From an uncultured Victivallales bacterium (GTDB lineage: Bacteria > Verrucomicrobiota > Lentisphaeria > Victivallales > UBA1829): DNA of 64,000 nucleotides. The notes below the pieces were generated by a model. The model was not told where the DNA came from. It did no database searches and was given only the letters and a program-made list of their open reading frames with translations. The DNA is taken from positions 1,957 to 65,956 of the forward strand of contig CAYWZD010000001.1 in NCBI GenBank assembly GCA_964462755.1. Reading direction: 5' to 3'. The position numbers and the translations under genes were made by a program. Below are positions 4,828 through 30,409 of this stretch, one piece after another. Position 1 is the first letter of the stretch, and each line of letters begins with the position of its first letter.

Positions 4828-4830
4828 GTC

Positions 4831-5565: not shown

Positions 5566-5568
5566 GGT

Positions 5569-7124: not shown

Positions 7125-7143
7125 GCGCAAGCCCTTCAGAACG

Positions 7144-7934: not shown

Positions 7935-7958
7935 CCTTCTATATCGGGAGCGGTATTA

Positions 7959-8948
7959 ATGCAGAAAGTCACAATCAGCGATGTCGCACATGAGGCTGGA
8001 TGTTCCAAAGCCACGGTTTCCTATGTGATCAATCGGACACGGCCGATCAGCGAACAAGTGCGAAAAAAAGTTCTGGATGCGGCGGAGCGTCTTGGGTATC
8101 ACCCTTCCGGAAAACGGAATACACCGCAGAGACGTTCCATTGCCCTGCTGGTCCGCGGAGATTTCCGGGTCGGGGACGAACCGGCGTTTACATTTCATCA
8201 TGAGATTCTCCGCAGAGGTTATATCCCGCAGATTTTCATGTGCGGACCGGATGTGGAATCCTTGAAACTGGTACTCGCCGCGATTGGAAACGACCGGAAT
8301 GTCGCCGGCGTCATCAATGCCGTCCCGACGATTGGAAGCTTGAACCTGCTGAAATATTGCCGGGAACTCCCTTCTTTTGTCTTTGCACGCAACGGATGCA
8401 TGCTTTGCTCCGTCCACTGCAATTATACACATCGAATGCGTCTGGCGCTTTCGCATCTGCATTCCCTCGGACACCGTAAAGTCATATTTTTCATAGACTC
8501 TTCCACCGTGGATAAGCCGCAGATGATCAGCAATATTACATTTCTCCAAGAATATTCTCAATCGGTTGAAATGGGAACGCGAATTGTAACACATCCGGAA
8601 CAGCGGGACAATCGGGCCCTTTTCCCGAAGCTGGATAAAGTATGGAAGGATGGCTTTACCGCGGTTCTTGCATGGAATGATTTTTTTGCCGAAATGATAT
8701 ACCAATGGGCTTATGAACGGAACATTCGAATTCCGGATGCTCTGTCGATCCTGGCTTTCTGCGATGAATTCAGGGCACAGGGATTTGCTCCGCCGCTGAC
8801 TTCCGTGCAGATTCCGCTCGAGAAGCTCGTGCATTATACCGTGGATGCGCTTCTCGCACGGATCGAAGACCGCAAAACGGAAGAAGTCCTTCTGCATCCT
8901 TTCCTTTCTCCCGGTGCCTCCACCGGTCCCGCATTGAAAAAACATTGA
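7959..8948 (+). CDS. LacI-family transcriptional regulator
   Basis: HTH MQKVTISDVAHEAGCSKATVSYVINRTRPISEQVRKKVLDAAERLGYHPS plus a sugar-binding-type C-terminal domain. Confidence 0.9.
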   Translation: MQKVTISDVAHEAGCSKATVSYVINRTRPISEQVRKKVLDAAERLGYHPSGKRNTPQRRSIALLVRGDFRVGDEPAFTFHHEILRRGYIPQIFMCGPDVESLKLVLAAIGNDRNVAGVINAVPTIGSLNLLKYCRELPSFVFARNGCMLCSVHCNYTHRMRLALSHLHSLGHRKVIFFIDSSTVDKPQMISNITFLQEYSQSVEMGTRIVTHPEQRDNRALFPKLDKVWKDGFTAVLAWNDFFAEMIYQWAYERNIRIPDALSILAFCDEFRAQGFAPPLTSVQIPLEKLVHYTVDALLARIEDRKTEEVLLHPFLSPGASTGPALKKH

Positions 8949-8987
8949 ACGAAATCAGATTCTTTTCCATCTCCCCGCCGTTTTCTT

Positions 8988-9036
8988 GAAACCGGTTCGC
9001 TCCTTTGATATTTTATTTCTTCAAAGGAGCGGTTTC
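8988..9036 (+). promoter_or_regulatory. strong hairpin that sequesters the Shine-Dalgarno sequence of the activase gene
   Basis: GAAAC-(cggtt bulge)-CGCTCCTTTGA [tattttatttct] TCAAAGGAGCG-GTTTC gives 11 + 5 perfect base pairs. The 3' arm contains the AAGGAG SD (9024..9029), which ends 8 nt before the ATG at 9038. No U tract follows. Confidence 0.5.
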
Positions 9037-9037
9037 C

Positions 9038-9940
9038 ATGAACGGAATCATTACTGAAATTCAGCATGGGGCGGTGCATGACGGACCCGGCTTGAGAAGC
9101 GTTGTATTCCTCAAGGGGTGCCAGATGCACTGTTTCTGGTGTCACAACCCGGAGACAATTTCATCCGGGCGCCAGCTCTCTCTCGACGAGTTGAAGTGTC
9201 TTGGATGCGGACGATGTTTTTCCCTCTGTTCCGCACACAAACTTCTTGACGGACGACACCGGATCGAACGGGAGCTCTGCAACGGCTGTTTCCATTGTGT
9301 ACAAGAGTGCCTCTCGGGAGCGCTGAGCATTTGCGGATGCGAAATCTCCGTCGATGAAGTTATGAATGACATTCTTGACGACATGGTGTTTTACAAGGAA
9401 TCCGGCGGAGGAGTTACCGTTTCCGGCGGGGAACCGGGATGTCAACCCGGATTTACGGCGGAAATTCTGCGTCGCTGCCGCGAAAAATGGATTCACACAG
9501 CCATCGAAACCAACCTCGGATATTCACTCTCCGTCCTTGAAACGCTTACCGCCGATTGCAATCTGGTGATGGCGGACTTGAAGCATATCGATCCGCAAAA
9601 ACACCGTGCCGGAACAGGATGCGACAACCGGCAGGTAATGGAAAACCTCCGTTCGTTGACGGTGCCGCTGATTCTGCGGACTCCCATCGTTCCCGGATTC
9701 AACGATCATTCCGAAACCATCCGGAAGATCGCGGAATTCGCGGCGGGTCTGGACACCCTCGAATATTATGAACTGCTGACCTATCATCCACTCGGCCGCG
9801 GAAAGGCCGAATGTCTTGGAATGGCGGAGCGGACAACGCGGCTGCCCGCCCTCCGGAAGGAAACAATAGACAATCTGGTGAAAGCCGCTTCCGAAACCGG
9901 AGTGACGCTTTTCCTCAATGGGAGCCCCATTGCAAAATGA
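9038..9940 (+). CDS. glycyl-radical enzyme activating protein (radical SAM with two extra ferredoxin-like 4Fe-4S motifs)
   Basis: MNGIITEIQHGAVHDGPGLRSVVFLKGC28QMHC32FWC35HNPE carries the CX3CX2C motif. Two CX2CX2CX3C motifs follow (CLGCGRCFSLC and CNGCFHCVQEC). The track start at 9005 is a non-ATG extension, and 9038 has the SD. The stop overlaps the GRE start (ATGA at 9937..9940). Confidence 0.9.
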   Translation: MNGIITEIQHGAVHDGPGLRSVVFLKGCQMHCFWCHNPETISSGRQLSLDELKCLGCGRCFSLCSAHKLLDGRHRIERELCNGCFHCVQECLSGALSICGCEISVDEVMNDILDDMVFYKESGGGVTVSGGEPGCQPGFTAEILRRCREKWIHTAIETNLGYSLSVLETLTADCNLVMADLKHIDPQKHRAGTGCDNRQVMENLRSLTVPLILRTPIVPGFNDHSETIRKIAEFAAGLDTLEYYELLTYHPLGRGKAECLGMAERTTRLPALRKETIDNLVKAASETGVTLFLNGSPIAK

Positions 9941-12087
9941 ATAAATTTGAACTCAAAAAATATGCCGGACGAATCGAACGTCTCGTGACGAAAAAAAAAG
10001 AACAGGTGCTGGAGAAATACCGCAGGATCGGAAAAGCGGATGAGGATGACTATGGGTATGTCCTTCCACCGGAGGAGTTCGTAAAGAAGTTCCGTTTTCC
10101 GGTCGTCGATGAAAACGGTTCGTTCCACGGGGTTTCCGCATGGGCGAAAAATTACCGGGCTTTGCTGGAAGCGCATCCGGTTTACGTCGACCCCGACGAC
10201 GCACTCGCGGGACGCTGGATGTTCATGATGTCACGCATGCGCGCAGGCTATAAACTCTCGCTTGCGCCGTTTCCTGTGGATTACTCGTTTCTGCATCACG
10301 ATCAGGAACTTTACGACTTGACCCACGGGATCGGCAAAGACGCCCATTTTGCACCGGACTACCGGATCGGACTCGCTCTCGGATGGGGCGGTCTGGCGCG
10401 AAAAGTGGAAGTGTCGCTCAAGATGCACAAAGACGATCCAGAAGCCGTTGAGCTGCTGAATGCCGAACTGGAGGCGCTGGCCGGAATCCGCAACTGGATT
10501 CACCGCACGGCAATGGCGGCGGACGGCGAAATGCGTCGCATCAACCTCAAACTGGAAACCGATCCGCCGGAAACACTCCGGGAGGCGTGTCAATGGATCG
10601 CATGGTTCAACATGGCGTCGCGCACCTACAACCGCGACGGCGCCGGAGGACAGCTCGACGAGATCCTCCGTCCGTATTATGAACGGGACATCGCCGCCGG
10701 ACGGATCGACGACGAGGATGCCGTTTTTTACATCGCGTGTCTTCTGCTGAACGATCCGCACTATTACCAGATCGGTGGGCCGGACCGCGACGGCGAGGAT
10801 CGGACAAGCCGTATTTCATATTTGATTCTCGAAGCCGCCCATGCACTGAAGATTTCCTGCAATCTGACGATCAGGGTCCATGACAGAATGGACGAAAAAC
10901 TGTTCCGGCGCGGAGTGGAAATCCTGTTGGAAGACAATCTCGGGTATCCACGTTTTTCCGGCGACAACGCATTGATCGAAGGGTTCATGAACAACGGATA
11001 CCCCATCGAGCTGGCCCGTGAACGGATCGCTCTTGGATGCAACTGGATGAGCATTCCGGGACGCGAATATACGCTCAACGACACCGTTAAAGTCAATATG
11101 ATGAAAGTTTTCGAAGTCGCGTTCGATGAATTTTCAGAGACAAAGAATTTTTCGCTCGATCTCCTTCATGAAACCTATAAAAAACATCTGGCCCGCGCCG
11201 CACTCTGCATCGCCAGGGGGCTTGATTTCCATCTGGCGCACCAGTATAAAAACGAGCCTGAACTGTTGTTGAACCTGCTGTGTTACGGCCCGATCGAAAA
11301 GGGACGGGACGCCTCGCACGGCGGCATCGAGTTCTACAACATGTGCTGCGACGGCGCGGGACTTGCCGTAGTCGCGGATTCCTTCGCCGCGATTCAGACT
11401 CAGGTCGTCGAGAAAAAGAGGATTACCTGGGAACAATGCGTTGAAGCCGTTCACAGCGACTTCAAAAATGAAAATGGAGAAATGATCCGCCGTCTGCTTG
11501 CGTCTTCCCCGCGCTTCGGATGCGGAGGGACCTGCGCCGACACATGGGCGGTTACACTGACGCGAGACTTCACGGAAGCATTTCCAAACATCCGTCACAC
11601 GCCGGAGGGACATCTGATCATTCCGGGTCTTTTCTCGTGGGCGGATACGCTCCGTTTCGGAAAAACAGTCGGTGCGACTCCGAACGGCAGACATGCCGGA
11701 GAACCGTCGTCGCACGGGGCGAACCCGTGTCCCGGATTCCGCAAAGACGGCGCGGCAACGGCCGTCGCAAAAGCAGTCGCCTCGGTCCAGTGCGGATACG
11801 GCAACACCTCCCCGCTCCAGCTGGAGATCGATGCCTCATTCGTGAACTGCGGGAATCCGGTCGAAAGACTGATGGCGTTGTTCATCGCGCACTTCAAACT
11901 GGGGGGTACGCTCATCAACGTGAATATCGTCGATGCGAAAACACTCCGGGCGGCACAAAAGGAGCCTGAAAAATTCCCAGACCTGATCGTACGTGTGACG
12001 GGGTTCACTTCCTATTTCATCATGCTTTCTCCCGAATTCCGGGATTTTGTAGTCAAACGCATCATAGAGGAAAAACAATATGCGTAG
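9937..12087 (+). CDS. glycyl-radical enzyme, PFL-like/dehydratase-like fold (716 aa), with a non-canonical Cys loop
   Basis: The C-terminal Gly-radical loop is DLIVRVTG689FTSYF. Family landmarks ATPNGRHAGEP and GLAVVADSFAAI are present. The Cys loop reads ERIALGC368NWMSIPG. The track ORF from 9811 is an upstream extension that would overlap the activase. The ATG at 9937 is in frame and translationally coupled. Confidence 0.9.
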   Translation: MNKFELKKYAGRIERLVTKKKEQVLEKYRRIGKADEDDYGYVLPPEEFVKKFRFPVVDENGSFHGVSAWAKNYRALLEAHPVYVDPDDALAGRWMFMMSRMRAGYKLSLAPFPVDYSFLHHDQELYDLTHGIGKDAHFAPDYRIGLALGWGGLARKVEVSLKMHKDDPEAVELLNAELEALAGIRNWIHRTAMAADGEMRRINLKLETDPPETLREACQWIAWFNMASRTYNRDGAGGQLDEILRPYYERDIAAGRIDDEDAVFYIACLLLNDPHYYQIGGPDRDGEDRTSRISYLILEAAHALKISCNLTIRVHDRMDEKLFRRGVEILLEDNLGYPRFSGDNALIEGFMNNGYPIELARERIALGCNWMSIPGREYTLNDTVKVNMMKVFEVAFDEFSETKNFSLDLLHETYKKHLARAALCIARGLDFHLAHQYKNEPELLLNLLCYGPIEKGRDASHGGIEFYNMCCDGAGLAVVADSFAAIQTQVVEKKRITWEQCVEAVHSDFKNENGEMIRRLLASSPRFGCGGTCADTWAVTLTRDFTEAFPNIRHTPEGHLIIPGLFSWADTLRFGKTVGATPNGRHAGEPSSHGANPCPGFRKDGAATAVAKAVASVQCGYGNTSPLQLEIDASFVNCGNPVERLMALFIAHFKLGGTLINVNIVDAKTLRAAQKEPEKFPDLIVRVTGFTSYFIMLSPEFRDFVVKRIIEEKQYA

Positions 12088-13156
12088 TCAGTCAAAATTG
12101 CGGGTGGCCGTCATCGGCTGCGGAATGATCTATGCGGAACACATGCAGGCTTTCCGGGAATTGGCCGACAAAGTCGAAATCGTGGCGGCTGTGGACAGGG
12201 AACGGCGCTGTCTGGACATCATGCGGGACCGCTGGGGACTGCCGGAAACCTCGTTGTTTTCGGACTGGAAAACGATGCTTGCCGAGGTGAAACCGGATGC
12301 GGTGGACATCTGTCTGCCGAATTACGAGCATTTCCCAGCGGCCATGGATGCCATCGGAGCGGGTTGCCATGTCTATTGTGAAAAACCGCTTGGAATGAAT
12401 GTTTCCGAATGCGAGCGGATAATCGACGCAGCCAAAGAGAAATCGGTAAAACTGGGAGTCGGGTTCCAGCAGGAATACAACCCCGGTACCGAAATACTCG
12501 TCAATGCCCGGAATGCCGGGTTCTTCGGCGACCTGCGGTATGTTCACGGTTCGCTCCTGCGCCGCCGCGGGACCCCGAACTGGGGCACCTATTGCCGACA
12601 CGAACTCGGAGGCGGACCGATTCTCGACATTGCCGTTCATCTGCTGGATGCCGTCACCTACGTCTGCGGCAGACCGGAGCCGAAACGCATTACGGCATCC
12701 TGCTTCTACGGAGAAGGGAAAAATCCATGCAGTGTTTTTTGCGGCACTCCGAACTGGAACAACCACGACTACAATGTGGAAGACCTTGCCGCCGCGCATA
12801 TCACATTCGCGGACGGTCTGGTCGTCCAGCTGGAGACCTCCTATGTCAACCACATCCGGGAAGACTGCGTGTATGACTTCAAATTAAGCGGGGCCAAAGG
12901 CGGCGCCTGGTGGCAGTCCGGAAAAGCGCCGGAACTTTATGCGGATATGTTCGGGGCAATGATGAATATCTCACCGGCGTTCATGCCCTCGCAGGGACGT
13001 CCGGAAATGTTCCGGAAAAAACTCGACAACTGGGTGAATGCCTGCCGGACGGGAAGCGAACTTCTCCTCCCCGGTGAAGTCGGCCTTTACATCCAGCGCA
13101 TCCTGGACGGCATTGCGCTGTCGGCAATAAAGAAGAATGAAATCGAACTCAAATAA
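12080..13156 (+). CDS. Gfo/Idh/MocA-family NAD(P)-dependent oxidoreductase
   Basis: N-terminal Rossmann segment KLRVAVIGCGMIYAEHMQAF, then EKPL...EC and the typical C-terminal alpha/beta domain. It overlaps the GRE stop by 8 nt. Confidence 0.85.
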   Translation: MRSQSKLRVAVIGCGMIYAEHMQAFRELADKVEIVAAVDRERRCLDIMRDRWGLPETSLFSDWKTMLAEVKPDAVDICLPNYEHFPAAMDAIGAGCHVYCEKPLGMNVSECERIIDAAKEKSVKLGVGFQQEYNPGTEILVNARNAGFFGDLRYVHGSLLRRRGTPNWGTYCRHELGGGPILDIAVHLLDAVTYVCGRPEPKRITASCFYGEGKNPCSVFCGTPNWNNHDYNVEDLAAAHITFADGLVVQLETSYVNHIREDCVYDFKLSGAKGGAWWQSGKAPELYADMFGAMMNISPAFMPSQGRPEMFRKKLDNWVNACRTGSELLLPGEVGLYIQRILDGIALSAIKKNEIELK

Positions 13157-13180: not shown

Positions 13181-14419
13181 ATGAAACTCTCACAGTCTTT
13201 CGGCGATGGAATCCACGACGATACCGCAGCAATTCAATCCATGCTGGACAGCCGGGCGTCCTTTGTCTATCTGCCTCCTCCAAAGGCGCATTACCGCATC
13301 AGCAAAACGCTGGTTTTGCATTCCGGCCAGGAATTGAAACTGGACCGTTTCACCCTGATCAGGCTCGCTCCGGCCAGCAACTGTCTCATGCTGACGAATG
13401 ACGACTATGCGAACGGCAACAGGGATATTGCCGTTTCCGGCGGCATCTGGGATTGCAACAACCGGGAACAAGCTCCCAATTACCAGCTTACCGGACGGGC
13501 CCATCCATCCACCCCGGACAAAAAAGTACCGGGCGCCCTCTGCGACTTCCAACAGCCTTATTCTCCCGATCTTTATCATGGAATCGCATTCCTTTTCATC
13601 AATGTCGAAAATTTTACCATGAAGGAACTGACATTCCGTGATCCGGTCACTTACGCTTCGCAGTTTGCCCGTCTGCGGTATTTCACAATTCGAGACATCT
13701 TTTTCGACTACCGGCATTGGAATCCGGCACCGAACAACATGGACGGAATTCATCTCGACGGAGGATGCCGTTTCGGAAAGATATCAAACCTGAAAGGGAC
13801 CTGCTATGACGATCTGGTCGCGCTGAATGCAAACGACAGTCTGAATGAATCCCCTTGCCAGGGACCGATTTCGGACATCGAAATCGACGGCATTTTCGCC
13901 GAGAAATGTCACAGTGCCGTCCGGCTCCTGTCTTTCGAGGCGCCCGTCAAACGGATCCATATCCGCAACGTTTACGGCACATTCTATCGCTATGCCATCG
14001 GCCTTACGCACTGGACCGGCAGCGGCCGAGGCGTTTTCGACGATATTCTACTGGAAAATATTTTCATCGGAAAAGCCATTCCGCGCAAGGAGGATTTCAA
14101 TACGCCGATGCTGCCGGAATACCCGCCTGTGTTCATTGAACGCGGGGGAGATATCGGACGGCTCGACATACGGAATCTGCGGCGGGAGGAATGCACCGTG
14201 GCGGTTCCGACCATCGAGATCGAAAAGGACGTCACGATCGATCGGTTGGCAATTCGGGATTCCGGATGTAAAAACCATTTGCCGAACCCCTTCGATTTCC
14301 TGGTCAACAATGGAAATATTAAGCATCTGGTTCTGAATGAAGTCTCGCTGTCGGACCCCCATGGAAAAACGCTCGCCGGAAGCGGAACCGTTCAAACCTT
14401 GCAGAGCGATGGAGACTGA
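13181..14419 (+). CDS. cytoplasmic right-handed beta-helix protein (pectate-lyase-3 / GH28-related type)
   Basis: The N-terminus FGDGIHDDTAAIQSMLDSRASFVYLPPPKAHYRISKTLVLHSG is typical of the pectate_lyase_3 domain. Repetitive beta-helix-like segments follow. There is no signal peptide. Confidence 0.75.
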   Translation: MKLSQSFGDGIHDDTAAIQSMLDSRASFVYLPPPKAHYRISKTLVLHSGQELKLDRFTLIRLAPASNCLMLTNDDYANGNRDIAVSGGIWDCNNREQAPNYQLTGRAHPSTPDKKVPGALCDFQQPYSPDLYHGIAFLFINVENFTMKELTFRDPVTYASQFARLRYFTIRDIFFDYRHWNPAPNNMDGIHLDGGCRFGKISNLKGTCYDDLVALNANDSLNESPCQGPISDIEIDGIFAEKCHSAVRLLSFEAPVKRIHIRNVYGTFYRYAIGLTHWTGSGRGVFDDILLENIFIGKAIPRKEDFNTPMLPEYPPVFIERGGDIGRLDIRNLRREECTVAVPTIEIEKDVTIDRLAIRDSGCKNHLPNPFDFLVNNGNIKHLVLNEVSLSDPHGKTLAGSGTVQTLQSDGD

Positions 14420-14479: not shown

Positions 14480-15565
14480 ATGAAAAGACTCAATGTCGCC
14501 CTTGTCGGGTGCTGGCATCCGCATGTTCCCCGTTACTATCCGATTCTGCAGAAACGTCCGGACACAGCCCTGACTTGTGTCTGGGATTCATCCGCCGAAC
14601 GCGGGAATGAATGGGCGAAAAAACTGGAGGTCCCGTTTTTTGCGGATTATGATGAACTGCTCAAACGTCCCGACGTCGATGCCGTGTGCATCGTCGCGGA
14701 GACAAACCGTCACGCGGAACTGATGAGGAAAGCCGCCGAGGCAGGCAAACATATCTTTACGGAAAAAACGTTCACGATTACGACCGAAGAAGCCGCGGCC
14801 GTCCGCGAGACGGTCATCAAGAACGGCGTTAAATTCGGCATTGCCTACATTCGTGCGACAACGCCCGCATTTGTGCTCGGCAAACAGCTGATGGACGCGG
14901 GATTGCTCGGCGAAGTCAACATGGTCCGCATCCGCAACGGCGTCGATGCCTCCAGAATGAACGATCTGCCGCCGGACTGGTTCGACAGAAAAATCGCGGG
15001 CGGCGGAGCCTGGATCGATCTGGGATGCCACCAGATGTATCTGATGGACTGGATGCTGGGAGAACCGCTGGACATTTCCGTCAACGCGATCCGTTATTAC
15101 GGCCGGGATGTGGAAGACAACGTCTGTGCGGCGGTCCGTTTCAGGAACGGGACTCTCGGAGTCGCGGAGTCAACCTGTTCCACGTTCTATTCTCCTTACA
15201 TGTTCGAAATCTACGGACGGAAGGGCTCTTATATCTGCCGCATCGATGCTCCGGAATCCGAAATACAGCTGGAAGCGGAAAACCTGGAAAAACTCAATGC
15301 TCTTCTGCCCGGAATCCGGCGACAGGAAAAAATTCTTGGAGGAACCGTCAGCAATGCATCCGTCAACTCGCTTTTCGGGGCAAGAGCCGTTGTGCAAGTG
15401 CCGGTTGCCGAATTGCCTCAGGGGAAGGAACCGATCGAACTCTGGCTGGATGAAATCCTTTACGGCAAGAAAAATCCGTTCGGCATCGACTGCGGATATC
15501 GTCTGACACGACTGATGGAGGGCGGCTGCCGTGCCCTTGCGGAAAAGCGAACCATAACGTTTTGA
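14480..15565 (+). CDS. Gfo/Idh/MocA-family oxidoreductase (second copy, divergent)
   Basis: MKRLNVALVGCWHPHVPRYYP...EKTF... follows the family layout. An AAAGGA RBS is present. Confidence 0.8.
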   Translation: MKRLNVALVGCWHPHVPRYYPILQKRPDTALTCVWDSSAERGNEWAKKLEVPFFADYDELLKRPDVDAVCIVAETNRHAELMRKAAEAGKHIFTEKTFTITTEEAAAVRETVIKNGVKFGIAYIRATTPAFVLGKQLMDAGLLGEVNMVRIRNGVDASRMNDLPPDWFDRKIAGGGAWIDLGCHQMYLMDWMLGEPLDISVNAIRYYGRDVEDNVCAAVRFRNGTLGVAESTCSTFYSPYMFEIYGRKGSYICRIDAPESEIQLEAENLEKLNALLPGIRRQEKILGGTVSNASVNSLFGARAVVQVPVAELPQGKEPIELWLDEILYGKKNPFGIDCGYRLTRLMEGGCRALAEKRTITF

Positions 15566-15573
15566 GGAGCCGG

Positions 15574-16497
15574 ATGAAATCTGCCGCGATTCTTTCTGCC
15601 GGAAGTCTTTTTCTGGTGTCGCTTTGCGCCCTTGCTGAGCCATGCACGTCACAGCAGACAAAACTGCTGGAAATGCGTATGAAGTCGCTCCGAATGCAGC
15701 TCAACCGTGCCATTTTGAAACACCCGGAAGACTATTCCGCGGACCGGAAAGAACATGCACTGAAAGATCTTGCCGAAACGCAACGTGACTGGCGGATGGC
15801 AAAAGAGTGGACCCTGCCCGCGCCGGAGTTCACCCTTCCCCGCCTGCCCCGGGCGCCGATCATAGACGGCCGGGCGGAAGAAACGGTCTGGCGTTCGGCA
15901 CGCGTCTGGCGCGGCAGTTTCCCCTGCTCTTCGGACAGGCATTCCGAGGACGGAACTGTCTGGCGGCTCGCATGGCATGGAACTTCTCTTTACGGCAGCG
16001 TATTCTTCCCCGATCGCGACATCACTTTTTACAAAGGACGGCAGGGCGAACCGCGGACACAGAAACGCATCTGGCAGGGGGATTGTCTGGAAGTTTTTAT
16101 TCAGCCGGATGAAAAAATTCCCTATTATGCGGAATTTCTCCTGCGTCCCGACGATACGGCATGGGTTCTGGATCACGTTCTGCCGGAAAGCGGGTTCTGG
16201 ACTACAATCCATTTCCATTTTCAGACGGAAGTGCGGGTCGCAGGACGAATCGTTGACGGAGGGTATGAACTGGAGTTCGGAATCGATCTCGCCGGCCTCG
16301 GTTCACGCTGGCGCAGACAGCCGCCCGGACGCGGGGAAACTCTGCGGATGACCATGGTCCGCATGAATCTGGATCTACGGCATCAGGGGGATCAGCCCCT
16401 TCAAAGTTCCTTTTATCCGCTCCTGCATTCCGGACACAACATTTTCGGATATGCGTCAATGGTTCTTTCCGACGCGGCGCCATTGAAAAATCATTGA
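15574..16497 (+). CDS. secreted CBM9/DOMON-like carbohydrate-binding protein
   Basis: Signal peptide MKSAAILSAGSLFLVSLCALA. Module IIDGRAEETVWRSA...WRLAWHGTSLYGSVFF...GDCLEVFIQP...YYAEFLL. The track start at 15562 is a TTG; the ATG at 15574 has a GAGGAG SD 4 nt upstream. Confidence 0.7.
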   Translation: MKSAAILSAGSLFLVSLCALAEPCTSQQTKLLEMRMKSLRMQLNRAILKHPEDYSADRKEHALKDLAETQRDWRMAKEWTLPAPEFTLPRLPRAPIIDGRAEETVWRSARVWRGSFPCSSDRHSEDGTVWRLAWHGTSLYGSVFFPDRDITFYKGRQGEPRTQKRIWQGDCLEVFIQPDEKIPYYAEFLLRPDDTAWVLDHVLPESGFWTTIHFHFQTEVRVAGRIVDGGYELEFGIDLAGLGSRWRRQPPGRGETLRMTMVRMNLDLRHQGDQPLQSSFYPLLHSGHNIFGYASMVLSDAAPLKNH

Positions 16498-16563: not shown

Positions 16564-16853
16564 TATATCATGAGGATGCATTGCAGCCTCCGGCATTCGA
16601 AAGTTTTGTATGGACTAACGGGGGGCCGTTCAAAACATCGTAGTGGAAAAGGGTGATTTCATGTAAACAGGAGGCACCAATGGAATTGCAGACATACAGG
16701 GGAAGGAAAGCAGACACTTGAAAACAGACTTTTTGTGACTTTCCAGGAAAGAAATGGATTTGAGCGGCAATATGGGGCCCGCTTTTAGAATAGGTTTTTT
16801 CAGAAAAAACAAAACATTTGAAATTGGTCCAACAAAGAGAGAAGGAAACGGAA

Positions 16854-21322: not shown

Positions 21323-22543
21323 ATGGAGAACTACAATATGAACGACTATGATATTGCTGTGGTTGGCGGCGGAGTCGCCGGTGTTGCGGCCGCCGTGCAG
21401 GCAGCCCGGCTCGGAATGAAAACCGCGCTGATCGAAAAAACGGCGCTGGTCGGCGGACTCGCCACAAGCGGACTGATCAACGTTTTCCTGCCGCTCTGCG
21501 ACGGAAACGGGCATCAGGTCACGTTCGGCATCTGCGAAGAAATGATCCGCAAGAGCATTGAATACGGCCCGGGCGAAATCCCGCCCGGCTGGAAAAATGA
21601 AAGGAACGGAACCGAGCGCCGCCGTTTCATCAGCGTGTTTTCCCCGGCCTCATTTGTGCTGGCTCTCGATGAAATGCTCGAAGCGGCGGGCGTCGACATC
21701 TGGCTCGATACGCTGGTCTGCGATGCACTGGAGGAGAATGGGAAAGTCACCGCCGTTACCGTGGAAAATGAAAGCGGCCGCCATACCGTCCGGGCCAAAC
21801 AGTTCATCGATGCCAGCGGCGGCGCGATCCTTGCACGCCGTCTCGGAATTCCGTGCTTCGAGGACGACAACTATCTTTCGCTCTGGTCCCTGGAATTCGT
21901 GCGTGACAAAGTCGACATGTTCATCGGAGCGGTTTACGGCGACGGCAAACCGACCGGAAAGGTCGGAAACGACGCCCTCGCGTCGGTCGGCCTTTCTCTT
22001 GAAAAGCTCGCACGGGTTGTCCAGCGCGGCATTTCAGGGAAGCAGGTTTCTGAATATCTCATGACGACCCGGCGCTATCTGCGGGCCTACTACCGGAATT
22101 GTTATGAAAGCGGGAAATCCGACCGACGCACCCACTACCCGCTCAAACTGCCGATCATGCCGCAATACCGGAAAATCTGTGCCATCAAAGGGAAACACCT
22201 CATGGCGGACGGTGAATACGGGAAATACGCAGAGGATTCGATCGGCCTGACAGCCGACTGGCGGAAAGCCGGATTCGTCTGGGAAGTCCCGTTTTCCGCA
22301 CTGTATCCTTCAGACGGTCCGGACGGAATTCTGTTCGCCGGACGCTGCATTTCTGCCGTCGGCGACGCATGGGAAGTCATGCGCGTCATTCCCGCCGCGG
22401 CCATGACCGGACAAGCCGCCGGCCTTGCCGCCGCTCTTGCCGTCGGGCAGGATGCGGAACCACGGCTACTGAATGTACATCAGATCCAGCGGGAACTTCA
22501 CGACAGGAAAATCCCGGTTCACTTGGACGAGGTTGGACTGTAA
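21323..22543 (+). CDS. FAD-dependent oxidoreductase (GIDA/FAD_oxidored-like)
   Basis: Dinucleotide fold YDIAVVGGGVAGVAAAVQAARLGMKTALIEKTALVGG. An alternative start at 21338 (MNDYD) has a GGAGA SD 8 nt upstream. Confidence 0.85.
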   Translation: MENYNMNDYDIAVVGGGVAGVAAAVQAARLGMKTALIEKTALVGGLATSGLINVFLPLCDGNGHQVTFGICEEMIRKSIEYGPGEIPPGWKNERNGTERRRFISVFSPASFVLALDEMLEAAGVDIWLDTLVCDALEENGKVTAVTVENESGRHTVRAKQFIDASGGAILARRLGIPCFEDDNYLSLWSLEFVRDKVDMFIGAVYGDGKPTGKVGNDALASVGLSLEKLARVVQRGISGKQVSEYLMTTRRYLRAYYRNCYESGKSDRRTHYPLKLPIMPQYRKICAIKGKHLMADGEYGKYAEDSIGLTADWRKAGFVWEVPFSALYPSDGPDGILFAGRCISAVGDAWEVMRVIPAAAMTGQAAGLAAALAVGQDAEPRLLNVHQIQRELHDRKIPVHLDEVGL

Positions 22544-22544
22544 C

Positions 22545-25500
22545 ATGCCGGAACGTCTTCTGAAAAAACTGCGGACCCTTCCGGCCGAAACACGCGGAAT
22601 CCCCTTCTGGGCGTGGAACAGCCGTCTTGAGCCGGAGCGTCTCCGGGAACAGATCCGTTCCATGGGGCAAATGGGATTCGGCGGGTTCTTCATGCATTCC
22701 CGGTTCGGGCTGAAGACGCAATATCTCGGAAAGGAGTGGTTCGACTGCGTCCGGGCATGCATTGACGAAGCGGAAAAAACGGGTATGCACGCGTGGCTTT
22801 ACGACGAGGACCGCTGGCCGTCCGGAACAGCAGGCGGAAAAGTGACCGCAAACCGGGAATACGCCATGCGCGGACTGGACTATGAAATTCTCGACCGGGC
22901 GGATTTCCATTCCGGCGACCTGGCTCATTTTGCCTTGTCCTACCGGAACGGCGCTGTCGATTCATGGCGCCGTATAACACATGAAAATGAAATGCGTCCG
23001 GAAGAAAAATTCATCCGTTTCACCGTCAGGACCGCGCCTTCTTCGCCGGCCGGCAACCGACAGCCTTATCTGGACACCATGAATCCGGAAGCGGTAAGGG
23101 AATTCATTCACATTACTCATGAAACCTATAAAGCGAAACTGGGAGAGGCTTTCAGGAAGATCCCCGGCATCTTCACCGATGAACCGACTTACAGTTCTTT
23201 CCATTTCAAGCAAATCTGGACGGCTTCCTTGCCGGAACTCTTCCGGGCAAGATACGGGTATGAGCTGCTGGATCATCTGCCGGAACTTTTTTTCGAACCG
23301 CACGGATGCAGGACATCCAGAGTCCGTCTGAATTTCTACAACCTCGCCGCGGAACTGTTCGTAAATGCCTACGCAAGGCAGATGGGGAAATGGTGCGAAA
23401 GGAATGGACTTGCATTCACCGGACATGTTCTCGGGGAAGATAATCTGTTTTCTCAGATGCAATCCGTGGGGTCAGCCATGCGTTTTTATGAACATATGCA
23501 GATCCCCGGCATGGATGTTTTGAGCGAGCGCTGGAACCTTTACGCTGCGGCTAAACAATGTTCTTCCGTCGCGCACCAGATGGGACGTCCTCAACGGCTA
23601 TGCGAGCTTTACGGCTGCACCGGCTGGGATTTTCCCTTCGAAGGACACAAGGCCGTCGGCGACTGGCTGGCCGCACTGGGGATCAATCTCCGGGTGCATC
23701 ATCATTACTGGTATTCGATGGAAGGCGAATCGAAACGGGATTATCCCGCCAGCATTTCACCGCATTCCCCGTGGCATGGGAAATACCGTTTCGTGGAGGA
23801 TTATTTTGCCCGGATCAACGCGGTCCTTTCCGAAGGGGAGGAGGTCCGTCACATTCTTGTCATTCATCCGATCGAATCGACATGGTTCGGGCGGCCGCTC
23901 GAATGCTACGGGAAAGAGGAACAGATCAATGTGAACGGATATTTTGTTCACACCGGAGAGGAAAAGCGGAAGGAGATGTCGCGTCTCCAGTCAATCACGG
24001 ACCTTCTTCTGCGGGAGCATCTCGACTTTGACTACGGCGATGAAGAACTTCTGACGCGTCACGCAAAGGTCGGGAAGAAAACTTTCCGGGTGGGAACAGC
24101 CGCCTATGGAACCGTCGTTCTTCCGGAACTTCTGACGGTCAGAAAAACAACCCTCGAGTTGCTCCGGCAATTCGCCGGGAATGGAGGCTCCGTTTTTTAC
24201 CTCGGGCAAATCCCGGAATTCGCGGACGGGGAACCTTCGCTGCTTCCCTTGAAATATTATGCTCTTTTCCGTCATGTGAATCTGACCGGCCTCCCGGCAG
24301 AACTGCATGCCGGTTTTCGCGAAGTTTCACTTCTATCGGAAAACAGGGAAGCCGGAGCCCTGTTGTATAACCTGCACCGGACACCTGGAATGGAATCGCT
24401 TTTCATCTGCAATACTTCCATGCTCCCGTCTGCGGATATTCATCAGTCTCCGCGAACGGCGGAACGACGGATCGAGTATCCCGATGTAAGGATTGCGTGG
24501 AAAATTTCCCGGTCCAGATCTGTTTACGAACTGGATTTGAATACAGGAAATTTCAGAACGGTATCATTTGACTTTACGGAAGGACGTGCCGTTTTTCATG
24601 TCCCGTTCCCGCGTCTGGCGTCCCGACTTTTTATTGCTTTGGAAGAAAAGATTCCGACGGGGCCGGTTCTTCTGGAAAATTCCGGTTCCGTATGGAACAT
24701 CCTGTCCGGAAATTTTGAGTATGAAATGAGCGAGGACAACCTGCTGGTTCTGGATTCGCCGGAATCCTCGTTCAACGGCGAGGAATACCGTGAGAAGGAA
24801 TACTTTCTCCGTCTTGATGAAAAAATCCGGCATACACTGAATCTGCCTCTCCGCAGCATCATGGCCCCACAGCCATGGGTTGAATGTGAAAAGAGTCGAA
24901 AAACGCTCTTTCTCCGTCTGCGCTATCGCTTCCGCTGTCGGAAAATTCCTGAAAAAGTGTTTCTGGGAGTTGAAAATCCTTCCCTATGGAAATTCTTTCT
25001 GAATGGAGTCCCATTCCAGCATATGGATTGCGGCTGGTGGTGCGATCCGGCGATCCGGAAAATCGCCCTGCCCCGTTTGTCCGAAGGCGAAAACCGGTTG
25101 GAGATGGAATCGGAATACGGCAATGATTCCGGACTGGAGTCCTTGTTTCTGCTCGGACGCTTCAGTGTCGATGACAAAGAGGTTCTGGACCCGCTGCCGA
25201 CGACATTGAAGTATGGGAGCTGGACGTTGCAGGGCTTTCCATATTACGCGGGAAACATGACCTATCAGACTGTTTTCAACTCGGGAGGGGAACCGCTCTT
25301 ATTGAAGTTTACGGAATGGAACGGTTCGGCGCTGGGAGTCCGCGTTAATGGCGGCAGTGAAAGCCTTTTGGGGTGGCCGCCATATGAGTTGCAGATATAT
25401 CCGGAAAAAGGAAAGAATGAGTTGCGGATCACGGTTTACGGACATCGCCGGAATGCGCTGGGCCCGTTTTACGCGGAACGGAATCCGTATCTGATTACCC

Positions 25501-25601
25501 CGAGGACATTTCGAATCTGGGAAAACGGACGGAAGCAATTGGTCCCCTGCGGACTGATGGCCCCTGTGGTATTTTACGGGATGGCGACAAGCAAAACCTG
25601 A
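22545..25601 (+). CDS. cytoplasmic putative glycoside hydrolase (1018 aa) of the 'PFWAWN...GGFFMH' jelly-roll type, often annotated GH106-like
   Basis: MPERLLKKLRTLPAETRGIPFWAWNSRLEPERLREQIRSMGQMGFGGFFMHSRFGL...WLYDEDRWPSGTAGG. The ATG at 22545 lies 1 nt after the upstream stop. The family assignment is from memory of similar N-termini. Confidence 0.75.
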   Translation: MPERLLKKLRTLPAETRGIPFWAWNSRLEPERLREQIRSMGQMGFGGFFMHSRFGLKTQYLGKEWFDCVRACIDEAEKTGMHAWLYDEDRWPSGTAGGKVTANREYAMRGLDYEILDRADFHSGDLAHFALSYRNGAVDSWRRITHENEMRPEEKFIRFTVRTAPSSPAGNRQPYLDTMNPEAVREFIHITHETYKAKLGEAFRKIPGIFTDEPTYSSFHFKQIWTASLPELFRARYGYELLDHLPELFFEPHGCRTSRVRLNFYNLAAELFVNAYARQMGKWCERNGLAFTGHVLGEDNLFSQMQSVGSAMRFYEHMQIPGMDVLSERWNLYAAAKQCSSVAHQMGRPQRLCELYGCTGWDFPFEGHKAVGDWLAALGINLRVHHHYWYSMEGESKRDYPASISPHSPWHGKYRFVEDYFARINAVLSEGEEVRHILVIHPIESTWFGRPLECYGKEEQINVNGYFVHTGEEKRKEMSRLQSITDLLLREHLDFDYGDEELLTRHAKVGKKTFRVGTAAYGTVVLPELLTVRKTTLELLRQFAGNGGSVFYLGQIPEFADGEPSLLPLKYYALFRHVNLTGLPAELHAGFREVSLLSENREAGALLYNLHRTPGMESLFICNTSMLPSADIHQSPRTAERRIEYPDVRIAWKISRSRSVYELDLNTGNFRTVSFDFTEGRAVFHVPFPRLASRLFIALEEKIPTGPVLLENSGSVWNILSGNFEYEMSEDNLLVLDSPESSFNGEEYREKEYFLRLDEKIRHTLNLPLRSIMAPQPWVECEKSRKTLFLRLRYRFRCRKIPEKVFLGVENPSLWKFFLNGVPFQHMDCGWWCDPAIRKIALPRLSEGENRLEMESEYGNDSGLESLFLLGRFSVDDKEVLDPLPTTLKYGSWTLQGFPYYAGNMTYQTVFNSGGEPLLLKFTEWNGSALGVRVNGGSESLLGWPPYELQIYPEKGKNELRITVYGHRRNALGPFYAERNPYLITPRTFRIWENGRKQLVPCGLMAPVVFYGMATSKT

Positions 25602-28126: not shown

Positions 28127-30409
28127 ATGAGTTGGATCGATTATCTGATTGTGCTTCTTCCCGTTGCCGGAGTTCTCCGGCTGGCATTTTACTCGCGAAA
28201 ATATGTGCGGGGAGTGGTTGACTTTCTGGCCGCGGGCCGCGTCGCCGGACGCTATGTCATATCCGTCGGAGATATGGCTTCATCCCTTTCGGTCATCTCG
28301 CTGGTGGCGATCTGCGAACAGAACTACCAGACCGGTTTCGGAATCGCCTTCTGGAACAATATCATGTTCCCGATTGGAATTGTCCTCGCCCTGACCGGAT
28401 ATTGCACCTACCGCTGGCGTCAGACGCGCTGTCTCTCCAAGGGACAATTCATTGAAATGCGCTATGGGAGCAGGAGTTTCCGCATTGTGACCGCTGTCAT
28501 CAGCAATATGTCCGAGATGATCGCCAACGCCATCGGTCCGGCGATTGCGGCAAAATTTTTCATCTACTATCTCGGACTGCCGCACAAAGTCATGTTTCTG
28601 GGAATCAGCCTGCCGTGCTACGGCATTATTGTCACGATGTGTCTCTGTCTGGCCTTATTGCTGATCTTGCCGGGCGGACGCATTTCTCTGCTTGTCACGG
28701 ACTGCGTCCAGGGGCTCATTTCATATCCGATCTTTGTCATCTTCGTCGGTTTCATCCTTTTGAAATTCGGATGGAACGTCAATCTCATGCCGATTCTTTG
28801 TGATCGTGTGCCGCAACAAAGCTTTCTCAACCCGTATGATGTCGCTCAACTCAGGGACTTCAATCTTTTCGCATTGGTTGTCACGCTGACGACCACCATT
28901 TTGAATCGTGCCAGCTGGATCGGCAACGACACATGCAATTCAGGACGCTCCCCGCACGAACAGAAGATGGCAGGAGTGCTCGGCACCTGGCGCAACGGCT
29001 TCTCCTGGATCATCATCGTCCTGCTCGGCGTAATGGTTTATGCATTCATGAACAGCGCCAACTTTTCAGGACACGACAGCCGGAACCGCTTCAAAGTTAC
29101 CAATAACGAAATCCGGCAGGAACTTTCAAAACGCGTCCTCGCGGAAGTCGTCCCCGAGAAGAGCCGTTACGATGAGCTTGCCGCCGCCGTTGGAAAAATT
29201 CCTCCGGCCGGACATGTCATCGGAAAGGATGCGCCGCTGTCACAGCAGAAAAACCTTGATACCCGGTATTTTTCCGTCGTGCGCGGAGAACTGGGAGATA
29301 CCCCCGAAGCCAGACGCGAATTTCAGCAGTACCGTTCCATCTACCGCCAGATGCTGATGCCGACGGTCATGCGGAAAATCCTGCCCGTCGGGCTGGCGGG
29401 GCTGTTCTGTCTGCTGATGGTTATGTTGCTGGTCTCCACGGATGACTCCCGTATCTTCAACGCCGCCAGCGGCATCGTTCAGGACATCATCCTGCCTTTC
29501 ATGAAGAAACGGCTTTCCCCGGAAAAACATCTGGCTCTCCTGCGTTGGACATCGGTCTGCGTATGCATTTTCTTTTTCATCGTCTCGTGTTTCTTTTCCC
29601 AGATGGACTACATCGTCATGTTTACGACGATCGTATGCGCCCTGTGGCTGGGCGGCGCGGGTCCGATCATGGTATTCGGACTTTACAGCCGTTTCGGAAA
29701 CCTGACCGGAGCCTGGTGTTCCATCATCTTCGGCACGGGAACCTCCCTGTTCGGCATGATCTGTCAGTACAACTGGGCGCAGACGATCTATCCTTTTCTG
29801 GAGAGCCGGGAGTGGGTTTTGCCGCTGGAGAATTTTTTGCATGCCGTCAGTTCTCCATTCGAACCGTGGATTCACTGGCAGATGGATTCCGTAAGGTTCC
29901 CGATCAATTCCTATGAGATTTTTTTCATCGCCATGCTCCTGGCAGTGAGCGGTTACATCATCGGTTCTTATGCAACCTATCAGCCGTTTGACCTTGACAG
30001 GCTTCTGCACCGGGGAAAATACAGCGACGGAGAAAGCAATTTGAAGCCGTCCGCAAGCTGGAGCCCGCTGGCGCTGGTCAAAAGAGTGGTCGGCATCGAT
30101 TCGGAATACACGCTGGGAGACAAGATCATTGCCTGGTCGGTGTCCATCTATTCGTTCGGCTATGTCTTCGGTTTGAACTTCATCACGGTCCTGACATGGA
30201 ATGCCTTTGACAGATGGCCGCTTCCCTGGTGGAGCCGATATTTCTTCATCACATCTCTTGTCATACCGGGAATCATCGGGGTTATTTCCACCGTTTGGTT
30301 CATGATCGGCGGCGCAAGGGACACCATACGTCTGTTCAAGGAGTTGAAAATCCAGGTGGAAGACCAATCCGACAATGGACAGATCATCCATACCGGAACG
30401 GAAAACTAA
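28127..30409 (+). CDS. sodium:solute symporter (SSF)-type transporter (760 aa) with a large hydrophilic insert
   Basis: At least 13 hydrophobic segments and an N-terminal SSF-like FLAAGRVAGRY segment. Residues ~309-417 are hydrophilic, lying between GFSWIIIVLLGVMVYAF and ILPVGLAGLFCLLMVML. Confidence 0.8.
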   Translation: MSWIDYLIVLLPVAGVLRLAFYSRKYVRGVVDFLAAGRVAGRYVISVGDMASSLSVISLVAICEQNYQTGFGIAFWNNIMFPIGIVLALTGYCTYRWRQTRCLSKGQFIEMRYGSRSFRIVTAVISNMSEMIANAIGPAIAAKFFIYYLGLPHKVMFLGISLPCYGIIVTMCLCLALLLILPGGRISLLVTDCVQGLISYPIFVIFVGFILLKFGWNVNLMPILCDRVPQQSFLNPYDVAQLRDFNLFALVVTLTTTILNRASWIGNDTCNSGRSPHEQKMAGVLGTWRNGFSWIIIVLLGVMVYAFMNSANFSGHDSRNRFKVTNNEIRQELSKRVLAEVVPEKSRYDELAAAVGKIPPAGHVIGKDAPLSQQKNLDTRYFSVVRGELGDTPEARREFQQYRSIYRQMLMPTVMRKILPVGLAGLFCLLMVMLLVSTDDSRIFNAASGIVQDIILPFMKKRLSPEKHLALLRWTSVCVCIFFFIVSCFFSQMDYIVMFTTIVCALWLGGAGPIMVFGLYSRFGNLTGAWCSIIFGTGTSLFGMICQYNWAQTIYPFLESREWVLPLENFLHAVSSPFEPWIHWQMDSVRFPINSYEIFFIAMLLAVSGYIIGSYATYQPFDLDRLLHRGKYSDGESNLKPSASWSPLALVKRVVGIDSEYTLGDKIIAWSVSIYSFGYVFGLNFITVLTWNAFDRWPLPWWSRYFFITSLVIPGIIGVISTVWFMIGGARDTIRLFKELKIQVEDQSDNGQIIHTGTEN

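Follow-up and report, generated by a model that had tools for sequence, protein, structure and literature searches.

A glycyl radical enzyme with tryptophan at the Cys-loop glutamate position in a sugar operon of an uncultured Victivallales bacterium

A stretch of 64,000 nucleotides from an uncultured Victivallales bacterium (contig CAYWZD010000001.1; hereafter the window, whose numbering is used throughout) contains, on the plus strand at 9937..12087, a gene whose translation is a protein of 716 amino acids followed by a stop codon. The gene encodes an intact glycyl radical enzyme (GRE) that is under selection, is coupled to an activase and belongs to a distinct clade found within sugar operons. 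The members of this clade, designated C-x-W, have Trp two residues after the catalytic Cys, the position occupied by Glu in the C-x-E motif of the GRE eliminases and isomerases. On the sequence evidence, the protein is very probably a functional GRE of an uncharacterised clade. GREs, oxygen-sensitive enzymes for chemically demanding anaerobic reactions, shape gut and sediment metabolism, for example through the formation of trimethylamine (TMA), H2S and p-cresol and the glycolysis of anhydro-sugars, and new GRE classes have repeatedly led to new pathways.

The radical site and the Cys loop

Pfam searches gave matches that exceeded the cut-offs for both the PFL-like domain (PF02901, E 1.3e-82) and the Gly_radical domain (PF01228, E 2.9e-13). 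The Gly loop, DLIVRVTGFTSYF, comprises residues 682-694 and includes R686-V-T-G689-F, in agreement with the RVxG[FY] radical-storage loop of GREs. The residue at the radical site is Gly689 (codon 12001-12003) and not the Ala, Ser or Thr that replaces it in the aminoacyl radical enzymes (2026 GRE review). The motifs ATPNGRHAGEP and GLAVVADSFAAI occur at residues 580-590 and 475-486, respectively. Translation of 9937..12087 placed every residue and codon where an earlier, sequence-only reading of the window had put it.

A longer open reading frame (ORF) of 758 amino acids that starts at the ATG at 9811 was considered and rejected. Homologues begin at the equivalent of position 9937, where the ATG overlaps the stop codon of the upstream activase gene as ATGA, so the 716-residue protein is the right product. 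It was said in the earlier reading to be shorter than the known enzymes, which is the case: the solved relatives have 759-897 residues and the C-x-W clade about 677-775. Comparison with the orthologue from Victivallis vadensis DSM 14823 gave a dN/dS of 0.05. The AlphaFold 2 (AF2) model had a mean confidence (pLDDT) of 86 and a predicted template modelling score (pTM) of 0.89, and Foldseek aligned it with 50 listed solved GRE chains at query-normalised TM scores of 0.73-0.82 and a probability of 1.00. The ten-stranded barrel of the superfamily is present. The best structural matches were the GRE eliminases, with TM scores of about 0.8, and the identity to any solved GRE was at most 22% by structure alignment.

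The Cys loop, ERIALGCNWMSIPG, is formed by residues 362-375, with the codons of Cys368 and Trp370 at 11038-11040 and 11044-11046. A phmmer search against all PDB chains paired GCNWMSIPGREY with GCVELSIPGRTY of E. coli PflD and with GCVEPQKPGKTE of the C. butyricum glycerol dehydratase (GDH). A profile built from 37 family members gave the same register, in which Cys368 aligns with the catalytic Cys of PflD and with Cys433 of GDH. Since the phmmer and family-profile alignments agree, Cys368 is assigned as the catalytic Cys and Trp370 as the residue at the position of the C-x-E Glu. The loop had originally been assigned by eye and the HMMER alignments, a check set beforehand, showed that this assignment was not shifted and that there is no hidden C-x-E or C-C motif. 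The first acidic residue on the C-terminal side of Cys368 is Glu377.

According to a review of the superfamily (June 2026), every GRE 1,2-eliminase and isomerase retains the C-x-E motif, whose Glu is hydrogen bonded to the substrate and deprotonates a substrate hydroxyl, while two adjacent Cys residues on the loop are confined to PFL and TdcE. None of the seven classes that the review describes has Trp at Cys+2. In the window protein Trp370 stands at the Glu position and the loop reads G-C-N-W; the formate-lyase model TIGR01255 scored 78 bits against a cut-off of 994. The decarboxylases and X-succinate synthases do not accommodate the protein either, as the decarboxylase equivalog models did not score above 109 bits, with cut-offs of about 1100, and no small-subunit gene adjoins the GRE gene.

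The loss of the Glu is not in itself unique among GREs; the novelty lies in a Trp that is conserved and in the clade in which it occurs. Phenylacetate decarboxylase (PhdB/PAD) is a characterised GRE that works without Glu at Cys+2. Its Gln484 lies two residues after the catalytic Cys. Gln484, Trp495 and Tyr691 are reported to be essential in this enzyme (2026 review). Phenylacetate decarboxylase acts on an arylacetate and differs from the window GRE in clade and gene context. Those representatives that have a G-C-G-Q-V loop, which we would guess to be PAD-like, are not part of the C-x-W clade.

The C-x-W clade and its active-site residues

A homologue search of 5.8 billion proteins recovered an identical protein, relatives of about 89% identity that include the V. 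vadensis enzyme, and relatives of 60-64% identity from Opitutaceae, Chthoniobacteraceae, Armatimonadota and Lentisphaeria, all of about 715-730 residues. When 37 family members with 60% identity or more were aligned, Gly367, Cys368 and Trp370 were invariant and Asn369 and Met371 were conserved in at least 90%. Pro374, Gly375, Glu377, Tyr378, Asn381, Asp382 and the R686-V-T-G-F segment were likewise invariant. With one genome per species, at least 587 stretches encode relatives. The matches listed came mostly from guts, rumen and digesters and included members of the Victivallales, Opitutaceae, Kiritimatiellae, Planctomycetota (Thermoguttaceae and Pirellulales), Armatimonadota, Oscillospiraceae, Acutalibacteraceae, Lachnoclostridium, Bacteroidales, Spirochaetota, Chlorobiota and Anaerolineales. 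All 85 GREs extracted from related loci have C-[NHQS]-W-M. When 1.84 billion cluster representatives were scanned in full with HMMER, 4721 matches were obtained. The closest full-length representatives, at 40-51% identity, have C-[NH]-W; they are followed by a second tier of short GREs (about 680-765 residues, 23-33% identity) with C-F-W-Y, C-Q-W, C-G-W or C-P-W, and then by the canonical C-[VI]-E enzymes at about 30% identity.

The second tier includes a sister subfamily (P0157, P0159, P0162, P0175, P0206, P0174, P0165 and P0161) in which the loop C-[FQGP]-W-Y is followed by P-G-[KR]-E-[YW], and which has the Trp at Cys+2, Asp382 and Glu442 in common with the window protein. One member of the C-x-W clade, P0130 (1052 residues, loop C-N-W-F), has a radical S-adenosylmethionine (SAM) activase of about 310 residues, with CxxxCxxC and ferredoxin-like motifs, fused to the N-terminus of the GRE. 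The fusion carries the activase alone and therefore offers no clue to the substrate. In a Victivallales metagenome-assembled genome (MAG; locus L085, about 1500-5995), two family GREs are apparently arranged in tandem, with a 781-residue ORF directly upstream of the matched GRE.

To place the protein phylogenetically, 102 full-length sequences were aligned with MAFFT; 37 of them have C-x-W, 52 have C-x-E and 13 have another loop. The set comprises those GREs that resemble the query most and covers the superfamily in part. The C-x-W sequences were monophyletic in the neighbor-joining tree and in 50 of 50 bootstraps. The window protein was on average 27% and at most 30% identical to the C-x-E representatives, and the position of Gly689 was occupied by Gly in 89 of 89 representatives. 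All of the marks of the clade were found in the window protein: C-x-W, P-G-x-E-Y-x-x-x-D, Glu442 and a Thr before the radical Gly. In NCBIfam, the GRE missed every cut-off. The PFL2/glycerol dehydratase subfamily model TIGR01774 gave 230 bits against 678, and the full-length equivalog models gave about 80-200 bits against cut-offs of about 1000-1150 (PflD-type, 196/1109; HypD, 182/1100; CutC, 170/1050; HpsG, 187/1000; indoleacetate decarboxylase, 109/1100; large subunit of 4-hydroxyphenylacetate decarboxylase (HPAD), 104/1150). The monophyly and the signature residues described below bear out the earlier proposal of a distinct GRE subfamily. The outcome that would have spoken against it, more than 50% identity to a characterised cluster, did not occur, the highest values being 22% for the solved GREs and 30% for the C-x-E representatives. 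Nothing was found in the literature on the C-x-W clade, with subscription papers thinly covered, so that a prior characterisation is possible.

Several residues distinguish the 37 C-x-W from the 52 C-x-E representatives: Trp370 (100% versus 0%; 37/37 and 0/52), Glu442 (100% versus 2%), Asp382 (100% versus 15%), Trp150 (91% versus 2%), Thr688 (91% versus 8%), Asn596 (87% versus 4%), Arg229 (83% versus 6%), Glu377 and Tyr378 (both 91% versus 21%) and Trp568 (70% versus 0%). By count, Asp382 occurs in 37 of 37, Glu377 and Tyr378 each in 35 of 37 and Trp568 in 30 of 37 C-x-W representatives; in the C-x-E enzymes Trp568 occurs in 0 of 52, and positions 377, 378 and 382 vary. Other positions are shared with the eliminases. 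The family profile aligned His137, Tyr277 and Asp382 with the identical residues His164, Tyr339 and Asp447 of GDH, and Phe566 with GDH Tyr640. His137, which by this alignment occupies the place of the eliminase His on the first barrel strand, was kept in 34 of the 37 C-x-W and 48 of the 52 C-x-E representatives. Its GDH counterpart is the proposed general acid that protonates the leaving hydroxyl (2026 review). The eliminase strand motif N-x-K-F is replaced by L-Q-L-E-L-D, in which Glu630 takes the place of the Lys. Two residues essential in IslA, Arg678 and Val680 (2026 review), correspond by offset in the profile alignment to Ile562 and Gly564, so the segment P563-G-L-F-S-W568-A-D is probably in the first shell.

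The earlier reading had anticipated a different handling of protons. This holds for the base, in that the Glu at Cys+2 is gone. It does not hold for the acid side, which looks conventional because the equivalents of GDH His164 and Asp447, His137 and Asp382, are retained. We infer from the alignments that the protein has kept an eliminase-type acid side and lost the Cys-loop base. Glu442, Glu377 and Glu630 are candidates for a relocated base, and Trp370 and Trp568 likely line the pocket, an arrangement that would suit stacking on a pyranose ring.

The absence of the canonical catalytic Glu could in principle mark the protein as a GRE relic that is catalytically dead or uses no radical, or the loop could be an artifact of alignment or sequencing. 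This is highly improbable, since 1) the register was confirmed by two HMMER alignments, 2) the motif does not vary among 85 loci drawn from many phyla, 3) the Gly loop and Cys, as well as the coupled activase, are conserved, 4) the dN/dS is low, as given above and 5) a fusion of activase and GRE exists.

The operon and the gene neighborhoods

The features of the window that bear on the GRE are collected in Table 1.

Table 1. Position of the GRE gene, its sequence elements and the surrounding features in the window
Feature	Position	Strand	Evidence or remark
LacI-family regulator	7959..8948	+	Pfam LacI and Peripla_BP_3; best NCBIfam match RbsR-like, below cut-off
Candidate sigma-70-like promoter	8986..9014	+	TTGAAA, 17-nt spacer, TATTTT, extended TG; consensus match, upstream of activase
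GRE activating enzyme, radical SAM, 300 aa	9038..9940	+	NCBIfam TIGR02494, 305 bits versus 174 cut-off
GRE, 716 aa, C-x-W clade	9937..12087	+	Translation, Pfam, PDB alignments, AF2/Foldseek, dN/dS 0.05
His137 codon	10345..10347	+	GDH His164 equivalent; family 'HfapDY' pairs with GDH 'H164vsvDY'
Cys loop G367-C368-N-W370-M-S-I-P-G375	11035..11061	+	Catalytic Cys; Trp in place of C-x-E Glu
Start of post-Cys-loop strand, E377-Y378-T-L-N-D382	11065..11082	+	Asp382 = GDH Asp447; strand 377-387 in AF2 model
Glu442 codon	11260..11262	+	Clade signature
P563-G-L-F566-S-W568-A-D570	11623..11646	+	Strand with substrate-binding residues in other GREs; second clade-specific Trp
Gly loop R686-V-T-G689-F690	11992..12006	+	Predicted glycyl radical site; Pfam Gly_radical
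Gfo1, Gfo/Idh/MocA NAD-dependent sugar oxidoreductase, DgpA-like	12080..13156	+	Pfam; start overlaps GRE stop by 8 nt
412-aa protein, weak pectate-lyase-like N-terminus	13181..14419	+	Pfam E 1.2e-4, below cut-off
Gfo2, second Gfo/Idh/MocA oxidoreductase	14480..15565	+	Pfam; best solved relative 6a3f, E 1.8e-20
311-aa protein, weak CBM9-like match, last gene of tight cluster	15562..16497	+	Pfam E 4.6e-4, below cut-off
PF12831 FAD-dependent oxidoreductase	21323-22543	+	Pfam
GH106-like protein	22473-25601	+	Pfam
SSF-type transporter, 760 aa, candidate importer	28127..30409	+	Pfam SSF

The activase has the radical SAM motif CQMHCFWC (CxxxCxxC) and two ferredoxin-like Cys clusters, and its ATG is preceded by an aaaggag ribosome-binding site. 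The overlap of its stop codon with the GRE start as ATGA indicates translational coupling. The GRE is provided with a dedicated radical SAM activase. The GRE 1,2-eliminases (glycerol and propanediol dehydratase, CutC, HypD and IslA/HpsG), which gave the best structural matches, use the same TIGR02494-type activase with auxiliary clusters. Because the GRE gene overlaps both of its neighbors, the activase and Gfo1, there is no room for a small accessory subunit of the kind found in HPAD and benzylsuccinate synthase (BSS), and no gene for one lies immediately beside the GRE. The best solved relative of Gfo1 was DgpA (7xr9), the C-glycoside 3''-oxidoreductase of gut bacteria, which matched over the full length with E 2.2e-41. 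Gfo2 had weak, below-cut-off NCBIfam matches to levoglucosan dehydrogenase and inositol 2-dehydrogenase. The gene order of the window operon is shared by V. vadensis DSM 14823 (locus L008), and Gfo2 follows Gfo1 in L008-L011 and L013. The 412-residue protein occurs in Victivallis operons only, elsewhere in L008 alone, and the 311-residue protein also in L008 and L011; neither had a PDB match by sequence.

The LacI-family gene, which is syntenic in V. vadensis DSM 14823, L010, L011 and L013, likely encodes a sugar-responsive repressor of the GRE operon. The -35 hexamer of the candidate promoter is overlapped by AACCGGTT (8990-8997), a perfect palindrome of 8 bp that could, judged by its sequence and position, be the operator of this regulator. 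A minus-strand ORF of 329 residues at 7956-8945 mirrors the 329-residue LacI gene and was dismissed as an artifact of ORF listing, as only the plus-strand ORF has Pfam and NCBIfam matches. No riboswitch or other RNA element was detected by Rfam between 6000 and 32000.

The tight GRE cluster is followed on the same strand by a long glycan-utilization run (16818-30409) that includes a 1242-residue DUF6259/laminin-G protein, the PF12831 FAD oxidoreductase, the GH106-like protein, a 655-residue protein without a family match and the SSF-type transporter, after which a second LacI-type regulator (30500-31585) lies on the opposite strand. DUF6259/DUF5696 proteins recur beside the GRE in loci of Verrucomicrobia and Kiritimatiellae, and homologues of the SSF transporter are found near the GRE in L001 (Opitutaceae) and L006. 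In L009, from another Victivallaceae MAG, genes for a PF12831 FAD oxidoreductase and a GH106-like protein are located directly upstream of activase-GRE-Gfo1-Gfo2, and their counterparts in the window (21323..25601) possibly belong to the GRE pathway. Two genes, 4831-5565 (minus) and 16818-17633 (plus), encode an N-terminal prepilin-type methylation motif, in one case together with DUF1559; the DUF1559/N-methyl protein is among the genes downstream of the GRE cluster on the same strand. Prepilin-type N_methyl proteins also adjoin the GRE in L001, L003 and L004 from the Planctomycetes-Verrucomicrobia-Chlamydiae (PVC) group. Upstream of the operon, a 1150-residue protein with a weak match to the GH123 N-terminal domain (1375-4827, minus) and another LacI-family gene (6096-7130, minus) suggest an adjacent, separately regulated glycan locus.

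Across the family, an activase homologue adjoins the GRE in 78 of 87 fetched loci. Neighbors were counted in 86 non-duplicate loci by extraction of same-strand operons and with tblastn seed proteins; a first clustering based on six-frame greedy ORFs was discarded because spurious antisense ORFs in high-GC loci gave Arg/Ala-rich clusters. The most frequent partner was a Gfo/Idh/MocA protein (34/86), followed by GlcNAc-2-epimerase-like (AGE-like) proteins (18/86; best NCBIfam match N-acyl-D-glucosamine 2-epimerase, 332 bits against a cut-off of 600), SSF transporters (17/86), nucleoside/oligosaccharide-type MFS transporters (14/86), PF12831 FAD oxidoreductases (10/86), AP_endonuc_2 proteins (5/86), GH130 (4/86) and HpcH aldolases (3/86). 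Absences carry little weight, as several of the loci fetched are short contigs. Gfo and AGE partners were almost mutually exclusive, with both present in L005 only, which suggests that they are interchangeable. Gfo partners could not be treated as one orthologous group, being only 25-38% identical between lineages, and there was no correlation between the residue at Cys+1 (N, H, Q or S) and the type of partner (Gfo or AGE).

The context was carbohydrate related in all six loci with called genes, where SusC/D, GH2, GH92, GH94, BNR sialidase-like and DUF5696/DUF6259 proteins are encoded nearby. RhaT-like transporters and ABC sugar permeases occur in some family operons. In three loci, one in a planctomycete genome and two on metagenome contigs, a GlcNAc-2-epimerase-like gene directly precedes the GRE. 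GH130 precedes the activase in a Chthoniobacteraceae genome, and activase-GRE is preceded by a HpcH/HpaI aldolase in an Armatimonadota MAG and in TAV strains of the Opitutaceae. The annotated neighbors of the GRE in the examined loci included no sugar kinase and no component of a phosphotransferase system (PTS). Our reading is that the constant function of the partner is to adjust a free sugar at C2/C3 in its configuration or oxidation state; the exact substrate may vary by subclade. A conserved protein of about 140 residues, without a Pfam match and with weak similarity to WbuC cupins, was seen near the GRE in L075, L079, L080 and L084 (Bacteroidales/Salinivirgaceae) and L061; in the Bacteroidales/Salinivirgaceae operons it is immediately downstream of the GRE and in two loci a RhaT-like transporter comes next. 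Conceivably it has an accessory role or acts as a sugar isomerase or mutarotase.

DgpA-type glycoside 3-oxidoreductase pathways resemble these loci in two respects: the GRE-coupled Gfo1 is most similar to DgpA, and AP_endonuc_2 (xylose-isomerase-like) proteins occur in some family loci, with none beside the GRE in the window. In the DgpA-type pathways, bonds are cleaved by DgpBC-type lyases through metal-dependent beta-elimination, and these pathways are not known to include a GRE.

Proposed reaction and its alternatives

The preferred reading, which we consider to have an even chance of being correct as a whole, is that the protein is a functional GRE of a new subfamily whose substrate is a free sugar or a derivative of one and whose chemistry is probably the radical cleavage of a C-O bond. 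Its parts are not equally firm. That the substrate derives from a carbohydrate is probable from the gene context; that the reaction is a C-O-cleaving elimination or isomerization is suggested by analogy and is a tentative assignment. Since the gene sits among sugar-modifying genes, a sugar chemistry that is new to GREs is probable, and the gene neighborhoods are consistent with the inference of a new substrate or reaction. The protein would work most like an eliminase or isomerase, in view of the acid, Asp and Tyr positions that are kept, although by definition it is a member of neither class: C-x-E is absent, GDH Tyr640 is replaced by Phe and N-x-K-F by L-Q-L-E-L-D, and there are no microcompartment genes.

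In the proposed mechanism, the co-translated activase (9038..9940) would install the radical on Gly689, from which it would pass to Cys368 to give a thiyl radical that abstracts a hydrogen atom from the sugar-derived substrate. The substrate may be a free, non-phosphorylated hexose, hexosamine, deoxy-sugar or anhydro-sugar, or a keto form of one of these, released by glycan breakdown. Its configuration or oxidation state at C2/C3 would be set by the partner enzyme, the DgpA-like Gfo in the window and the GlcNAc-2-epimerase-like protein elsewhere. The thiyl radical would then initiate C-O cleavage, which might be a dehydration, a ring opening or the elimination of an ether or glycoside, with His137 (GDH His164) as the putative acid for the leaving group, Asp382 (GDH Asp447) binding the substrate and Trp370, probably with Trp568, stacking on the sugar ring. 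A base may be dispensable, for example if the substrate is a keto-sugar, whose alpha-hydroxy radical is acidic, or it may be supplied by Glu442, Glu377 or Glu630.

The closest characterised systems that act on a sugar ring are PflD and YbiW, the C-O lyases for 1,5-anhydromannitol-6-phosphate and 1,5-anhydroglucitol-6-phosphate of 'anhydroglycolysis', which share the superfamily and fold with the window protein. It is conceivable, but unlikely, that the protein is a divergent orthologue that catalyzes a known GRE reaction with a base from another position, so that only the scaffold and loop differ. The most likely candidates would be a PflD/YbiW-type ring-opening isomerization of an anhydro-alditol, on a non-phosphorylated sugar, or a glycerol/diol-type dehydration. 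PflD was the best sequence match among solved structures and the top match in both PDB searches (phmmer, E 2.4e-49; profile, E 4.2e-79), its post-loop strand PGRTYGLHD resembles PGREYTLND here with a conserved Asp, and the His of HxxxDY is common to both. The retained equivalents of GDH His164, Asp447 and Tyr339, the carbohydrate-related context and the presence of 1,5-anhydro-D-fructose reductases of the Gfo/Idh/MocA family among the weaker PDB matches of Gfo1 and Gfo2 also fit a known reaction. However, the lead of PflD over glycerol dehydratase and CutC was marginal. The identity to PflD/YbiW is about 20%, within the limit of 22% for all solved GREs by structure alignment, their length is 765-810 residues compared with 716, and the PflD-type equivalog score (196 bits against 1109) is far below its cut-off. 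Moreover, both characterised isomerases use the C-x-E Glu, at the position of the Trp, to deprotonate the C2-OH. Their substrates are sugar phosphates, whereas no kinase or PTS gene is nearby here or next to the GRE in the loci examined, and the clade is split from all of the C-x-E representatives with full bootstrap support.

Some neighbors raise the possibility that the substrate is an anionic sugar acid, or that a sugar acid undergoes a different kind of reaction, for instance C-C cleavage or decarboxylation. In one version the GRE would be a radical dehydratase of an aldonate or 6-deoxy-aldonate, which would deliver a 2-keto-3-deoxy acid to the HpcH/HpaI aldolase in a non-phosphorylative oxidative pathway ordered as aldose 1-dehydrogenase, lactonase, GRE and aldolase. 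The aldolase upstream of activase-GRE in the TAV strains and the Armatimonadota MAG resembles HpaI, GarL and the 2-keto-3-deoxy-L-rhamnonate aldolases. The Amidohydro_2 family, which has a member after the activase in one planctomycete, includes sugar lactonases, and the Gfo/Idh/MocA family includes aldose 1-dehydrogenases (for example, the XylDh_Gfo6 matches). Rhamnose forms a further thread, which runs through the GH106-like gene, a Bac_rhamnosid gene in L003 and the RhaT-like transporters of Bacteroidales operons. The clade-enriched Arg229, Arg363 and Lys385, together with the loss of the active-site Glu, would suit a carboxylate. We nevertheless consider this rather unlikely, because the aldolase is found in only 3 of the 86 loci and Amidohydro_2 in 1, aldonate dehydration requires no radical chemistry, the associated SSF, nucleoside/oligosaccharide-type MFS, RhaT-like and ABC transporters usually serve neutral sugars, and the best-matching relative of Gfo1, DgpA, is a 3-oxidoreductase and not a 1-dehydrogenase.

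Several points weigh against radical C-O cleavage of a free sugar by the C-x-W enzymes: 1) the cleavage is proposed by analogy and the nearest classes all use the Glu that is missing here, 2) the Cys loop had a pLDDT of only about 72 in the AF2 model, 3) the conserved basic residues Arg229, Arg233, Arg363 and Lys385 could mean an anionic substrate, for example a sugar acid, 4) the gene calls in the fetched loci were crude and the neighbor counts rest on these ORF calls and on the tblastn seeds and 5) the neighborhoods are heterogeneous and the Gfo partners, as noted, are only distantly related between lineages. It may be that the substrate is not the same in every subclade.

The wider proposal, to which we assign somewhat less than an even chance, is that the C-x-W proteins constitute a new functional class beyond the seven of the review and carry out a radical transformation of free or keto-sugars that is new to GREs. 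An example would be the ring opening, deoxygenation or ether/glycosidic C-O cleavage of a 3- or 2-keto-sugar produced by the coupled Gfo, which would proceed on a Trp platform without a general base in the Cys loop. The review acknowledges that whole GRE clades are still unannotated (2026 review), and the C-x-W clade makes such a known unknown specific.

The clade is an attractive one, being large (at least 587 stretches), phylogenetically deep and without the residue that is held to be mechanistically central in the nearest classes. In anaerobes that degrade polysaccharides it is consistently associated with sugar transporters and with sugar oxidoreductases or epimerases, and a cultured isolate from the human gut, V. 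vadensis DSM 14823, carries the same operon. An unannotated protein of the PFL family thus becomes a testable target with a defined operon, an activase, signature residues and a shortlist of substrate types. The possible payoff is a new GRE reaction and a missing step of anaerobic glycan catabolism. If the proposal is true, there would be an unrecognised anaerobic route for carbohydrates that is widespread in those PVC bacteria, Clostridia and Bacteroidales that inhabit guts and digesters.

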